A stretch of 4,133 bases of DNA, taken from the IMG/VR virus record IMGVR_UViG_2645727743_000019; one strand, written 5' to 3'. The notes beneath the pieces were generated by a model. It was not told the origin of the DNA. It did not search any database and was given only the letters and a program-made list of their open reading frames with translations. The DNA is from a virus (taxonomy: Duplodnaviria; Heunggongvirae; Uroviricota; Caudoviricetes). Shown here in pieces: positions 1-4,133 of this stretch; the first letter of the stretch is position 1, and every line of letters begins with the position of its first letter. Position numbers and translations under genes: made by a program.

Positions 1-68
1 TAGCTGAACAGGAGGGACAGCTGATAGAAACAGAAGCCACTGGAGCACCTCAAAAACACCATCATACA

Positions 69-314
69 CTAAATCAGTAAGTTGGCAGCATCACCCAAAC
101 TTCCAGGGTACTCTGAAAGTTTGGATTCTAAATAATGTTTACTGGTTGTTAAATTTCTTACTAGCCCTTGTCTATATTCGGCTGTTACATCAACCAATAC
201 CTTTGCCCCACCGCCAGCGTTTACTATTGCACCCAAGTCACTACTGGAAAAAGGGATTCTTAACATTGGGTTTGTAACTTTTGCGTTACTAAACTGTGTA
301 CCCCTTCTGCTCAT
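69..314 (-). CDS. hypothetical small protein (81 aa) overlapping the 3' end of the AAA ATPase gene; candidate partner of the ATPase
   Basis: Open frame of 81 codons with TAG stop at 69-71. The ATG at 314-312 is preceded on the coding strand by AAGGAGTCAGGAGCAT, which holds two Shine-Dalgarno-like GGAG cores. The start lies inside the last 26 nt of the AAA gene in a different frame, an arrangement typical of translational coupling. Composition is AT-rich like the ATPase gene. I recognise no motif in the protein (contains NAGGGAKVLVDV). Confidence 0.45.
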   Translation of the reverse strand: MSRRGTQFSNAKVTNPMLRIPFSSSDLGAIVNAGGGAKVLVDVTAEYRQGLVRNLTTSKHYLESKLSEYPGSLGDAANLLI

Positions 315-1443
315 ATGCTCCTGACTCCTTCAGAATGTTTGAAATTACTCTTGATGTAAGTTTGTACAAATTAGCAAGAACTCTGATAGAAAATAATTTT
401 TTATCTTTAGAACGTAACCAACGAATTTCATCTTCGTAAGTGCTTAAATTTACACCTTCCATAAGCGATTGCGCAAGATACAAACGCCTATACAATTTAT
501 GGTGATTTATCACACTTGCACCTTCAATAACTGCATCCCTACGTGCATCCAAGCTCACCTGTTCAATTATTGCTCCGGATAATCCCTCCGATTTTCTTGA
601 TAAATCACTTAAATCTAGATCGCTACATATCATATTCTTTAAACGATTTTTCCAAATTAACTCTCTCTGATGTATGTCAGGCAGAGGCATTGGAATTCTG
701 AAGCTAAATCGCCTCCAGATTGCAGGATCCAGAAGTTGCTCATGGTTAGTTGAGGCAATAATTACCGTATCCTCTGATGCCGCATCCATATTCTGCAATA
801 GTGAAATGACAACTCGCTGAAGCTCACCTATATCTCTCTCATTACCTCTTGCTCCAGCTAAAGCATCAAATTCGTCTAAAAAAAGCACTGATGGCCTCTG
901 CATTACATAATCGAAAACCTGTCTAAGATTTTTGCTGGTTTGTCCCAATAAACTACTAATCAAAGTATCGCAACGCACTGTAAGAAGTGGAAAATCTAAG
1001 CGGGTAGCGATGTACTTAGATAACATAGTCTTACCTGTTCCTGGCTTTCCATACACGAGCATACGACTCGGCAATGCTGCATCAGCTTTAACAAACTCAT
1101 CATAACGTTGAACATTAGTGATAAACTCTTCAACACGGGTACTGATTGCTGCAGGCAGAAAAATCTCTGAACTGTCTAATTTAGGATAACTGACATCAAC
1201 AGTGTTGAGTCGACTATCAATATCTACCGGTAATGAGCCCAGAGATATCCCACCTCCAGCCCTTTGAGCTCCTGCCAACGCCTGGGGAGCTCTAAGCAAC
1301 CTTTCTCTTATCATTCTGGCTTGCTTGACCTCCCCTTTTTGTTCGAGCTTATCTGCCAGCAACCCAGCATAATTACTAGCCATCGAAGCATTTGCCTTTG
1401 TTGCACCTTCAATGATTTTTAACACTTCTGATAAATAATCCAT
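289..1443 (-). CDS. AAA family ATPase, classic clade, with uncharacterised ~120-aa N-terminal domain
   Basis: 384-aa ORF, ATG at 1443-1441 preceded by GGGAGTGTTGA (SD-like GGGAG). Walker A is GKPGTGKT (aa 132-139, nt 1027-1050) and Walker B is VLFLDEFD (nt 865-885). Sensor-1 is ASTN, followed by a second region of homology AIWRRFSFRIPMPLP with tandem arginines (aa 244-245). A lid-type motif GLSGAII sits near aa 287-293. The RRF..RI...PLP pattern is what I associate with the Vps4/katanin/spastin-like branch of classic AAA proteins. The N-terminal ~120 residues and C-terminal ~90 residues carry no motif I can assign. Confidence 0.9.
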   Translation of the reverse strand: MDYLSEVLKIIEGATKANASMASNYAGLLADKLEQKGEVKQARMIRERLLRAPQALAGAQRAGGGISLGSLPVDIDSRLNTVDVSYPKLDSSEIFLPAAISTRVEEFITNVQRYDEFVKADAALPSRMLVYGKPGTGKTMLSKYIATRLDFPLLTVRCDTLISSLLGQTSKNLRQVFDYVMQRPSVLFLDEFDALAGARGNERDIGELQRVVISLLQNMDAASEDTVIIASTNHEQLLDPAIWRRFSFRIPMPLPDIHQRELIWKNRLKNMICSDLDLSDLSRKSEGLSGAIIEQVSLDARRDAVIEGASVINHHKLYRRLYLAQSLMEGVNLSTYEDEIRWLRSKDKKLFSIRVLANLYKLTSRVISNILKESGAYEQKGYTV

Positions 1444-1640
1444 TCAACACTCCCACAACAAAAAGCCACAGCAATCAAAAAATGAGCACACAGAATCAAA
1501 ATACTCTCTAATCGTAACGCATTTTGAGATTTTTGATACGTTTTTTTGGGATTATGTAACGCCAAATGGTCATTTTGTGTCAGAAAAATAAATCTTAGTA
1601 CCGAGAATATGTAGCTTCCATCCTTCATCGTTCTATTCAT
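1419..1640 (-). CDS. possible small hydrophobic protein (73 aa) bridging the replication module and the AAA ATPase gene; speculative
   Basis: The ATG at 1640-1638 overlaps the TGA stop (1639-1637) of the upstream 143-aa gene as ATGA, with GGAG 7 nt upstream. The frame stays open for 73 codons through the whole AT-rich 'intergenic' region and ends at TAA 1421-1419, inside the first 25 nt of the AAA gene. The predicted product has a hydrophobic stretch (ESILILCAHFLIAVAFCCGSV) that could be a single transmembrane helix. Against it: rare codons, no recognisable domain, and the region could instead be a non-coding promoter leader. Confidence 0.25.
   Translation of the reverse strand: MNRTMKDGSYIFSVLRFIFLTQNDHLALHNPKKTYQKSQNALRLESILILCAHFLIAVAFCCGSVEWIIYQKC
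1444..1636 (-). promoter_or_regulatory. AT-rich leader upstream of the AAA ATPase gene; possible promoter and operator region (alternative to the small-ORF reading)
   Basis: 193 bp between the stop of the 143-aa gene and the AAA start, about 30% G+C. On the coding strand it contains weak sigma70-like elements (CTGACA ... TTACAT/CATAAT) and an A-tract. A short inverted repeat CCAAATG-GT-CATTTTG sits at 1562-1577 (5-bp perfect core). No convincing intrinsic terminator hairpin with a T-run was seen. Promoter calls by eye are unreliable. Confidence 0.2.
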
Positions 1641-2068
1641 CCCTGATCTCCAAGCCTCTCTCGAAAACCATTCTGATAAAACGCCAGCACACGCTGCATA
1701 ACTTCGCTCTTCCGGCACTCGCGACAGATTATGTTCAGACGCCTGTCGTAGCGGCGTATTTCTCCGTCTGGTAATGACCAGATAAGGTCCGGATCAACCA
1801 CAGATGGTTTCTTCACCTTTGCCCTGGATAGTTTTTTGCGGGCATTTTGCCAGTCCTTACGAGCCTGTTCAGACGGGAATAACCCGTAACCAGAGTTGTA
1901 TACATCGCCACTGGCAACCAGCTCTCTGGCGAGAACGCTCATCAGATATCTTGTCGCACCTGTCTTGGCTTCCAGTTGCCGTAACATCTCGCGCCCACTC
2001 CGGCGTACTAGCTCAACAACCTGCCCTTTAATTTTTTCCCGCTCTTCTTGTGTAAATACTTTTGCCAT
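1637..2068 (-). CDS. hypothetical protein (143 aa), basic, prophage replication-region gene of unknown function
   Basis: ATG at 2068-2066 is preceded by GGAGG at 7-nt spacing and lies 15 nt downstream of the TGA stop of the preceding gene. The longer version in the ORF track begins at a TTG (2083) and is less likely. The protein is rich in R/K and has a single CxxC (ICRECRK). Composition matches the replication module. I do not recognise the family. Confidence 0.65.
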   Translation of the reverse strand: MAKVFTQEEREKIKGQVVELVRRSGREMLRQLEAKTGATRYLMSVLARELVASGDVYNSGYGLFPSEQARKDWQNARKKLSRAKVKKPSVVDPDLIWSLPDGEIRRYDRRLNIICRECRKSEVMQRVLAFYQNGFRERLGDQG

Positions 2069-2083
2069 AAGCGCCTCCGGCAA

Positions 2084-2845
2084 TCACTTTTCCGATACAA
2101 CACGGCGGGAAGAATCAGTAATCTGTCGAACAATATCCCGGTGCTTGTTCAGCTCCCGCAGCGCGGCGCAGACTCGCTCCCACTTCTGGACATGATTTTT
2201 CGCCCGACGCAGTTCGCGGTTTGCCATATGCAGTGATGGTAAAACCAGGTCATCCGCTCGCGTTTCAGTAAACGATGGCAGCGACTGCACAATGTCCGCC
2301 ACAGTTTCTGTTTTAATATCTTCCTGTGTTGCAGCCTCCTGTACTGGTAACGCAACACCTGCGGTATGAGGAAAGGCCTTACCATCAGTTTCCGCTACCG
2401 ATGCTGCTTTCGGCTCTGCTGGTAAATTATCGCCCGGTATGCAGTAACGAAATTTACCGCCCTGATTTACGCGAATCAGACGACCTTTGCTGATTGCCAT
2501 TGCCAGCGTTGAAGCCACTTTGCGTGATGTGGTACCAAACAATGTAGCCAGCTCATCAGCCATTTGTGGTCCTCGTTGTTCAATCGTCGCGGTTAAATCG
2601 CACTCTGAGATTTTCGCTACTGTTGCTGTGGTGATTTCTTCCGGCAGTTCTGCCTGCGCTGGCTGTTCCTGCTGAACGTTGTTATCAGCCACACGCCAGG
2701 TGTACGCGCTTTTATCAACAAAACCAGCCTTTTTCAGTTCCCATAGTTCGTTCAGCACTTCTTCACGACTGATATCAAGTCGCGCAGCAAGTTCTATGGA
2801 TGTGGCTTTTCCCATTGCTTTCAGTGCGTCAAAAACAGTCTCCAT
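2084..2845 (-). CDS. prophage protein with two winged-helix (HTH) DNA-binding-like segments; function unknown
   Basis: Preferred start is ATG 2845-2843, preceded by GGGAGA at 8-nt spacing and lying 22 nt after the DnaC-like stop. The alternative ATG at 2896 would overlap the DnaC-like gene by 29 nt and has a weaker SD. The N-terminus ([29 protein letters not shown]) and a second segment ([32 protein letters not shown]) both look like MarR/Lrp-type winged-helix recognition units. The acidic/Q-rich linker and basic C-terminus resemble proteins I recall following dnaC-like genes in Rac-type prophages (DUF1627-like), but this is unverified. Confidence 0.7.
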
Positions 2846-2867
2846 TAAATTTTTCTCCCGGTAAAAA

Positions 2868-3614
2868 TTACTTCGCAATTCCTGGCTGGACGACATTCGG
2901 ACGCCAGCTCTCCCAGTTAAAATTCACCCATAGCCCGCCGTTCATGGTCATGCGATCCATAATCCGCTCGCCGAGCAATGTTTTCATGGCCTCATAGTTC
3001 AGGTTTGTCAGCATCCCCACGCTGCGCATCGACGCTGTCCGGCGATCAACAATCTGGTGCAGTACCACCTGCTCGTTTTTCGTCTCGCGCTGAATGCCAA
3101 TTTCATCAAGAACCAGCAGATCCACTTCGCACAGTTCCCGCAAAAATTTTTCGCCTGACTGCCCATCGTCATAGCTGGCGTGGAGGGCACTCATAACATC
3201 AGCCACGGTAACCACAATCACTGTCTGACCGTCTTTCAGCAGGCGATTCCCGATAGCTGCTGCTAAGTGGTTCTTCCCGGTACCAGGTTTTCCGCTAAAC
3301 GCGAAATTTGTGCATCCGGTCATCAGTTCATCAGCGATAGATTTCGCCTGGCTCAACGCGTATCGCTGACCGTCGTTCTGCACCTGGTAATTCGCAAACG
3401 AGCATTTACGGTGCAACGGCTGGATGCCTGAGCGATTCAGAATTTTTTCCACCCGCAACTGGCGATTCAGGCGGTTGATCTCCTCGCTACGTTTCTGGCC
3501 TTCAGCAAGTTGCCACTCGTGCCACTCCGCTACCGTTCTGAATGGGGCGGTTACATGTGGCGGAGCCAGTCTTCGGATACGTTCAAGAACGCCGCCTGCC
3601 GCAATGTTTTTCAT
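2868..3614 (-). CDS. dnaC: DnaC-like replicative helicase loader (prophage paralogue of DnaC)
   Basis: 248-aa ORF with Walker [18 protein letters not shown] (nt 3270-3293), Walker [10 protein letters not shown] and [11 protein letters not shown]. These stretches are near-identical to what I recall of E. coli DnaC ([30 protein letters not shown]). The N-terminus ([17 protein letters not shown]) also resembles DnaC. The ATG at 3614 lies 6 nt after the TGA of the upstream DnaT-like gene with AGGGGG as SD, as in a dnaT-dnaC type operon. Confidence 0.9.
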
Positions 3615-3620
3615 GACACG

Positions 3621-4133
3621 TCACCCCCTGAATCCCGGCGGTATTTCAGTGTCCGGTTCAGAAATGTGATTCACGCAACGCTGCGCAGGCAAACGCCCCA
3701 GGCGGATAACCAGTTCATCCCATTTTTCCCGGAGTTTTGCCGGACTCATGATGTTTTTTACCCAGAACGAATCCCGCTGGAGACGCCCAAACATTTCACA
3801 AATTTGTCTGTGAGTTCTGCCATCCAGCATCCGCATTGTGCGAACGTCATTGGCCCATGCTGTCCAGTTGGGTTCTTTCGGTCTAGTGATCTCGCCATCA
3901 TAGCTGGCCGCCTGCTCGTAAAGACTCACGATTCGTCCCCAGATCCACTGTGCGCACACCAAATCTTCCTGACTTCCCCACTGGCGTTTTTTCGCACTGA
4001 ACACAACCGCGTCAGGGTGTCGGGTTAAAAAATCCTGTTCAGCCGTCTGCGGGTCCGGTTGCGAAGCGTCCGGACAAGAAGATCTTTTATCTGACGGATC
4101 AGGTTTTAATACTGACGGATCGGGGTCAATCAT
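3621..4133 (-). CDS. phage replication protein with DnaT-like (primosomal protein I) C-terminal domain; possibly 5'-truncated by the window edge
   Basis: Open frame running from the window edge to TGA 3623-3621. The C-terminus (ISEPDTEIPPGFRG) closely matches the C-terminal end of E. coli DnaT as I recall it (...SEPDSQIPPGFRG). It sits immediately upstream of, and is coupled to, the DnaC-like gene. The frame begins with ATG exactly at 4133-4131, so the true start may be this codon or may lie beyond the window. Confidence 0.8.
   Translation of the reverse strand: MIDPDPSVLKPDPSDKRSSCPDASQPDPQTAEQDFLTRHPDAVVFSAKKRQWGSQEDLVCAQWIWGRIVSLYEQAASYDGEITRPKEPNWTAWANDVRTMRMLDGRTHRQICEMFGRLQRDSFWVKNIMSPAKLREKWDELVIRLGRLPAQRCVNHISEPDTEIPPGFRG

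Follow-up and report, generated by a model that had tools for sequence, protein, structure and literature searches.

The short reading frame at positions 69..314 (minus strand) of the stretch analysed here, a DNA sequence of 4,133 nt referred to below as the window, can be identified with high confidence as the first 74 codons of iteS (ietS), a 754-codon gene of an S8 family protease that was broken by the insertion sequence IS1, that is, as a pseudogene remnant of the known IetAS (IteAS) system. The window carries an ordinary broken copy of this already catalogued two-gene anti-phage defence. The apparent orphan small ORF is an artefact of the insertion sequence and, for this reason, does not qualify as a candidate for a new small protein.

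The chimeric reading frame and the IS1 junction

The frame begins with ATG and comprises 81 codons. Its residues 1–74 match the N-terminal end of IteS (754 aa) from Escherichia coli TUM14664 (locus L001) without a difference (74/74), whereas residues 75–81 (DAANLLI) and the stop codon TAG (71..69) are the sequence of the IS1 inverted repeat; the peptide spanning the chimeric C-terminal end is ...SEYPGSLGDAANLLI. Since the last seven codons and the stop codon are derived from IS1, the length of 81 aa is an accident of the IS1 landing site. According to the DNA alignment with the intact locus of TUM14664, identity extends from window position ~93–96 rightwards, and the sequence leftwards of it is unrelated. 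The 5' remnant of iteS thus delimited by the alignment occupies positions 96..314 (minus strand), and its codons 1–73 are certainly native. In the comparison with an annotated IS1A copy (locus L002), positions 1–97 of the window are 100% identical to the element, and the sequence rightwards is unrelated. Since IS1 and iteS share the bases of codon 74 (GGT, 95..93), the junction can be placed only to within 3 nt.

As for the element itself, its terminal ~95 nt lie at 1..95 (minus strand), with the left inverted repeat GGTGATGCTGCCAACTTACTGAT... reading from position 95 downwards, and the element runs off the end of the sequence. We take GGTGATGCTGCCAACTTACTGAT... to be the left inverted repeat (IRL) of IS1; the terminal repeat (GGTGATGCTGCCAAC..., minus strand) ends at window position 95. 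The 5' end of the transposase gene insA is found at 1..40 (minus strand; GTG start at 40..38), in the same orientation as iteA and the iteS remnant, and is cut by the sequence end. The transposase CDS annotated in the IS1A copy ends at position 1040 of that locus, which corresponds to window position 40. Both the terminal inverted repeat and the adjacent start of insA are therefore present, as is characteristic of IS1 membership.

In 5,426 complete E. coli genomes searched by megablast with window positions 1–1500, the matches fell into two classes. Positions 1–~110 matched loci of IS1-family transposases in 4,976 of these genomes, and 78 chromosomal matches with 99.7–99.9% identity, containing annotated iteA and iteS, all started at window position 93. 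Over positions 93–1500, the intact allele of E. coli strain 102651 is 99.9% identical to the window. In the retained part of iteS, the sole difference from the intact allele of TUM14664 is at window position 99 (A here, G in the intact locus). This change is synonymous (Ser72, AGT vs AGC) and is located 4 nt from the IS1 junction, within the expected target-site duplication; the best matches among the complete genomes likewise contain one mismatch over window positions 93–200. A complete IS1 is ~768 bp long and is flanked by target duplications of 8–9 bp; for a simple IS1 insertion here, the expected 9-bp target duplication is CAAACTTCC or a neighbouring register.

The insertion took place after codon 73/74 of the 754 codons of iteS. 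Translation from the native ATG would then read seven codons into the IS1 inverted repeat and stop there, so that the native start yields at most a peptide of 74 + 7 aa. The window ends 95 nt inside IS1, and the 680 3' codons of iteS may either follow on the far side of the element, as after a simple insertion with a target duplication, or have been deleted. Since the sequence ends within the multicopy IS1, the contig break can be attributed to the repeat. Short-read assemblers tend to misjoin in exactly such repeats, and it could be supposed that the junction is an assembly chimera and that iteS is intact in the genome. This is next to impossible, as at least seven other read sets, each assembled independently, gave the identical junction with 27–30 nt of IS1, and a misjoin would not fall cleanly at the exact terminal base of IS1.

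The exact 81-aa product is recorded in the NCBI draft contig JHRM01000155.1 (GCA_001265465.1) of E. coli 401140, of which the window is the full extent. It was also called in seven Logan read-set assemblies, five of which were retrieved as loci (L007–L011). Among these, four contigs occur letter for letter in the window, and the other deviates from it in its first 6 bases only. The five contigs end 27–30 nt into IS1 (window positions 66–69), as k = 31 assembly at a repeat would lead one to expect, and have ragged 5' ends at window positions 1258–1753. The accessions of the listed runs (SRR1184186/97/98 and SRR1186284/93) form two clusters, as do the sample accessions. The ragged 5' ends and the two accession clusters suggest that the Logan contigs are assemblies of RNA-seq reads, probably from libraries of strain 401140; if so, iteA would be transcribed together with the iteS stump and the first part of IS1. 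The record JHRM00000000 belongs to E. coli 401140, an EatA+ EPEC/ETEC hybrid of the EPEC5 lineage (phylogroup A, ST1788) from a lethal case in Kenya in 2008 (PMC5471185; PMC10332235), for which eight RNA-seq libraries exist and RNA-seq reads are public (GEO GSE86640).

Thus far, the exact product is found only in assemblies of apparently one strain. The IS1::iteS junction is absent from the 5,426 complete E. coli genomes, the GTDB species representatives and IMG/VR, which indicates a strain-specific insertion.

The iteA gene and its overlap with iteS

The gene upstream of the remnant, iteA (ietA; 289..1443, minus strand), is intact and encodes a classical AAA+ ATPase of 384 aa, the antitoxin or regulator of the pair. 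The protein scored 526.6 bits against the NCBIfam equivalog model of IteA (NF042959, cut-off 510), aligning over its full length (1–367 of 367), and was assigned on this basis as the ATPase of IetAS. It also matched the PADLOC IetA profile (8.9e-143) and the Pfam AAA family (2.6e-30), and is identical (384/384) to the RefSeq protein WP_000385105.1, which is encoded in TUM14664. The closest relatives with solved structures are Afg2, proteasomal ATPases and the D2 domains of p97/Cdc48, which places IteA in the unfoldase-type clade. Sequence searches for solved structures of IteS or IteA themselves found none and matched only generic subtilases and p97/Cdc48. In Pseudomonas aeruginosa (locus L012, 1605–3041), the gene call for IteA has 478 aa, compared with 362–401 aa elsewhere, owing to an N-terminal extension or a mis-called start.

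An earlier note made from the sequence had described the 81-aa ORF as overlapping the ATPase ORF by 26 nt out of frame, with a Shine–Dalgarno (SD) motif inside the ATPase coding sequence. Both features are present. The shared segment is 289..314 (minus strand), from the iteS ATG (314..312) to the iteA TAG (291..289), and is where the two genes natively meet. The motif AAGGAG (325..330, minus strand, read as 330..325) falls within iteA codons (..LKES..) and precedes the ATG of iteS by 10 nt. Another motif, AGGAG (322..318), also within the iteA coding sequence, is not conserved.

The overlap is 26 nt in the window, in E. coli TUM14664 (PGAP-annotated), in Citrobacter (L003) and in Morganella (L017), 20 nt in Salmonella (L015), 32 nt on an Acidovorax plasmid (L004), 41 nt in P. 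aeruginosa (L012, GTG start), 53 nt in Burkholderia (L013) and 56 nt in Ralstonia (L016); these lengths rest on starts set by automatic gene callers, and the exact values are provisional. In the window and the eight other loci, every overlap is 2 mod 3, i.e., the relative frame of the two genes is constant. The sequence AAGGAG, GAGGAG or AAGGA occurs ~9–13 nt upstream of the iteS start in eight of the nine overlapping loci, the window included (the exception is Burkholderia), and AAGGAG probably works as the SD. A very distant AAA/S8 pair on a Methylotuvimicrobium plasmid (27% identity) has a gap of 46 nt and no overlap; the overlap is therefore a feature of the IteS equivalog clade rather than of all AAA/S8 pairs.

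A start at M17, which would abolish the overlap, was considered and rejected. M17 is replaced by Phe in most homologues, which argues that the upstream start of the M1 type is the real one; in addition, M17 is not preceded by an SD, and every homologue has 14 or more residues ahead of the conserved NP motif.

As in IetAS, the protease gene directly follows the ATPase gene on its strand and overlaps it, and the geometry of type II toxin–antitoxin operons (the antitoxin gene first, overlapping the toxin gene) is present. To judge from gene geometry, the protease gene is most likely coupled translationally to the ATPase gene upstream of it by the overlap and the internal AAGGAG, in the manner of type II operons with the antitoxin first. 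The conserved overlap and frame of iteA and iteS could guide the annotation of start sites as well as studies of toxin:antitoxin stoichiometry.

The IteS remnant and the loss of the protease

The best 120 listed homologues of IteS are proteins of 708–771 aa with 50–100% identity and 94–100% query coverage from Enterobacterales, Pseudomonas, Aeromonas, Burkholderia, Ralstonia and Comamonadaceae. This diversity was obtained from the IteS protein search and look-ups of the contigs, while the search for IteA loci in genome contigs gave only one locus, of Citrobacter. No stand-alone homologue of ~80 aa ending at the same place was found among the 120 matches listed. The N-termini of the homologues consist of a variable basic tail followed by the pattern NPF..IPF..DL..GGG.K..V.V..YR..L, with 93–100% conservation. 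The dN/dS ratio of the retained codons 10–74 (Nei–Gojobori) is 0.14 for E. coli/Citrobacter and 0.08 for E. coli/Morganella, and the other two frames contain 3–8 stops. The frame of the remnant is under purifying selection in relatives and goes well beyond what chance would give. The conservation and dN/dS proposed in the earlier note as a check on the frame are thus confirmed, but as those of the start of a 754-aa gene.

In a search of the 81-aa ORF against Pfam, no match was found. The impression of a novel protein that this blank gave was overturned by the DNA comparison and by N-terminal matches to the PADLOC IetS profile (1.3e-10) and the NCBIfam IteS profile (1.2e-9), of whose 747–749 positions only the first ~60, at the N-terminal end, were matched. 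Against the equivalog model of IteS (NF042956, cut-off 900), the ORF scored 37 bits and covered only positions 1–60 of 747, while the intact IteS of TUM14664 (gene at 1958–4222 of its locus) scored 1037.8 bits. The full-length S8 peptidase that defines IetAS/IteAS is not what the window encodes, as the ORF represents only 10% of the protein.

In intact IteS, the Peptidase_S8 domain comprises aa 268–544. The residues D273, H303, N402 and S505, located in the DTG, HGT, GN and GTS motifs of subtilases, are invariant in 79 aligned homologues. The window encodes none of the four residues of this catalytic tetrad, which come after residue 74 in the protein. The structural model of full-length IteS (pLDDT 85.6, pTM 0.89) predicts an N-terminal extension (1–73) with mini-strands 18–20 and 27–29 and a helix 45–68, two beta-alpha-beta-beta-alpha-beta-like modules (74–147 and 167–237), then the S8 domain and, at the C-terminal end, a beta domain (576–720). 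The best Foldseek matches of the model in the PDB are pro-subtilisins with propeptides (3afg, Pro-Tk-subtilisin, PCSK9 and S1P), and the modules preceding the catalytic domain may be read as propeptide-like. Residue 74 opens the strand 74–80 of the model, and IS1 cut the gene directly before the near-invariant block FKLRE.GIAKSHRP. When the 81-aa product was modelled alone with the same alignment, pLDDT was 67.7 and pTM 0.33, and only the helix 45–68 was kept.

These results bear on the proposal of the earlier note that the ORF encodes the effector partner of the ATPase. The partner gene is indeed that of an effector, the protease IteS/IetS. As for the 81-aa protein, its role as a functional partner does not hold, given the length of the listed homologues, the score of 37 bits, the missing S8 domain and the poor folding predicted for the product alone. 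A genuine small adaptor, regulator or antitoxin-like protein that arose as a partner of the AAA ATPase would be consistent with the good start context, the overlap with the ATPase gene and the purifying selection on the frame in relatives, but is extremely unlikely, as its last seven codons and stop belong to IS1, every one of the 120 listed homologues runs on to ~750 aa, no Pfam family and only the N-terminal positions of the IetS/IteS profiles are matched, the junction occurs in no complete E. coli genome, GTDB representative or IMG/VR contig, and the product is not predicted to fold alone. The 81-aa product is most probably a non-functional remnant of iteS and is probably unstable. Since no protease domain follows the iteS stump within the window, this copy cannot be a functional IetAS as seen, and the defence system appears to be dead in strain 401140, with iteA persisting as a harmless antitoxin gene. 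Defence finders that work gene by gene may report an "IetA-only" system or a false-positive IetAS in this strain.

The loss of iteS is not limited to strain 401140. Point mutations divide the gene into two ORFs in E. coli B19695 (locus L018, 201–2464) and NR3736 (locus L019, 201–2465), the match in B19695 being 1 nt shorter, and in both strains the iteA product is the identical WP_000385105.1; the two are among the 78 complete genomes with this allele. There have therefore been at least three separate inactivations of iteS in E. coli, each with iteA kept, which fits toxin–antitoxin logic. In another strain, E. coli 28Eco12, the protease is named just "S8 family peptidase".

Some residual activity at the locus may be imagined in several forms: the stump could bind IetA as a decoy, the orphan IetA could serve as an anti-addiction or anti-defence factor against an incoming IetAS, or a 5'-truncated IetS could be expressed beyond IS1. 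The strong conservation of the N-terminal segment 15–73, the native SD and overlap kept by the stump, the apparent transcription of the locus into IS1 (probable RNA-seq assemblies) and the intact iteA in three independent strains with broken iteS would agree with such a role. It is nevertheless very unlikely. Binding of IetA by the IetS N-terminus is a conjecture, the stump is predicted to be largely unstructured, with its motif modelled confidently only alongside the missing part in the full-length protein, and recent neutral decay would leave iteA in place just as well, the alleles being at least 99.5% identical. There is a similarly slim chance that the AAA+ ring of IetA recognises its protease by the IetS N-terminus (the basic tail, NPF..IPF..DL and the helix 45–68), that the co-translated stump therefore still occupies IetA, that the stump with IetA or the orphan IetA forms an anti-addiction or immunity-modulating module directed against incoming phages and plasmids with IetAS, and that the recurrent loss of iteS with iteA kept was selected rather than neutral.

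Genomic context and comparison with known systems

The genes of the window are all on the minus strand, in the order O-like replication initiator (cut by the sequence end), DnaC/YdaV-like loader, DUF1627/YdaW, DUF977/LygF, iteA and the iteS remnant. The DUF977/LygF protein corresponds to the PHROG "Ren-like exclusion". If the longest ORF of DUF1627 were taken, its ATG at 2896 would place its first 29 nt (2868..2896) within the DnaC-like gene. Gene callers and PGAP start DUF1627 ~17 codons later (253 aa, 2084–2845), so this overlap is probably not real. In the AT-rich region upstream of iteA, a gene caller run on the NCBI contig placed an ORF of 73 aa at 1419..1640 (minus strand), 25 nt over the iteA start; it has no PGAP annotation in the TUM14664 locus and looks spurious.

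The GC content falls from 0.50–0.56 in the replication module to 0.36–0.41 in iteAS. The DUF977 gene extends with its 3' end into the AT-rich region upstream of iteA (1444..1672, minus strand; GC ~0.36). Going by the drop in GC and by the stretch shared with Rac-like phages (see below), this region probably carries the promoter of the cassette as well as the edge of the variable cargo. No match to the sigma-70 consensus was found on the minus strand upstream of iteA, and the promoter scan overall gave fewer matches than shuffled sequences. An Rfam search of the window gave no match.

The phage vB_EcoS-683R6 is 97% identical over window positions ~96–3657, including iteA and the start of iteS. 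Rac-like phages (vB_EcoS-666R9 and others) share only positions ~1673–3657, without iteAS, which indicates that the pair is variable cargo between the replication and nin/rusA modules. In E. coli 401140, iteAS is low-GC cargo of a Rac-like lambdoid prophage; E. coli ietAS has been reported to be located in prophages (bioRxiv 10.1101/2022.08.21.504612). Outside E. coli, iteAS of the Acidovorax plasmid lies beside a Shedu nuclease and an integrase (4814–5923 of locus L004), and that of P. aeruginosa beside a Fic protein and an AAA_15/AAA_21 ATPase pair (1–1022 and 5588–7959 of locus L012). Both neighbourhoods look like a defence-island context.

According to PMC13069673, which cites Yamamoto (2009) and Gao (2020), IetAS was first described as a plasmid-stabilising toxin–antitoxin pair with a serine protease toxin and an ATPase antitoxin. 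The same paper states that the anti-phage function needs the protease activity, that an ietA mutant was not constructible and that the mechanism "remains unknown". An ietAS of Bacillus acts by abortive infection triggered by the expression of a phage protein (bioRxiv 10.1101/2022.08.27.505566). In a homologous mycoplasma pair, deletion of the toxin or of both genes is viable, and deletion of the ATPase only is lethal (PMC8562856). In an intact system, a hexameric AAA+ ring of the unfoldase-type IetA would restrain IetS; a phage protein would disturb this restraint, and the freed IetS protease would cause growth arrest. Of this model, published work establishes only three elements, namely a toxic protease whose activity is needed, its neutralisation by the ATPase, and a phage protein as the trigger of the toxicity (PMC13069673; bioRxiv 10.1101/2022.08.27.505566; PMC8562856).

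As an insertion, the remnant is similar to other IS1 insertional pseudogenes of E. coli and Shigella, with the clean terminal-repeat junction, the short chimeric frame ending inside the inverted repeat and the contig break at the repeat, and nothing distinguishes it from them.

As for the protein pair, the ietHAS system (Liu-DS4; PMC13069673) has the same core of IetA and IetS and requires protease activity, but contains an added SNF2 helicase. In the window, iteA has no adjacent helicase gene, and its upstream neighbour is DUF977/LygF (Ren-like). The TA132/133 pair of Mycoplasma mycoides (PMC8562856) is likewise a two-gene operon of an AAA ATPase and a subtilisin-like protease, in which, according to experiments, the ATPase neutralises a toxic protease and cells without the toxin gene are viable (PMC8562856). 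This pair belongs to a distant lineage, is likened here by description rather than by sequence, and has no IS disruption.

The IetA/IetS pair of the Agrobacterium plasmid pTiC58 (Yamamoto et al. 2009, J Bacteriol 191:4656, as cited in PMC13069673 and PMC8562856) also has the gene of the AAA ATPase antitoxin upstream of that of the S8 toxin, and follows the same logic, by which loss of the toxin is tolerated and that of the antitoxin is not. The pTiC58 pair is carried by a plasmid, whereas the pair in the window is prophage cargo. S8 proteins of Agrobacterium/Rhizobium plasmids align to E. coli IteS only at query aa ~260–740, with 25–28% identity; since this alignment is confined to the catalytic and C-terminal part, the N-terminal segment retained in the window is not detectably shared with them.

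The closest known system is IetAS/IteAS itself (Gao et al. 2020, as cited in PMC13069673). The copy in the window differs from it in that iteS is interrupted by IS1 after codon 73/74 and no protease domain is present within the window, and it shares with it the identical ATPase, 74 identical residues of IteS, the gene order, the 26-nt overlap and the location in a prophage.
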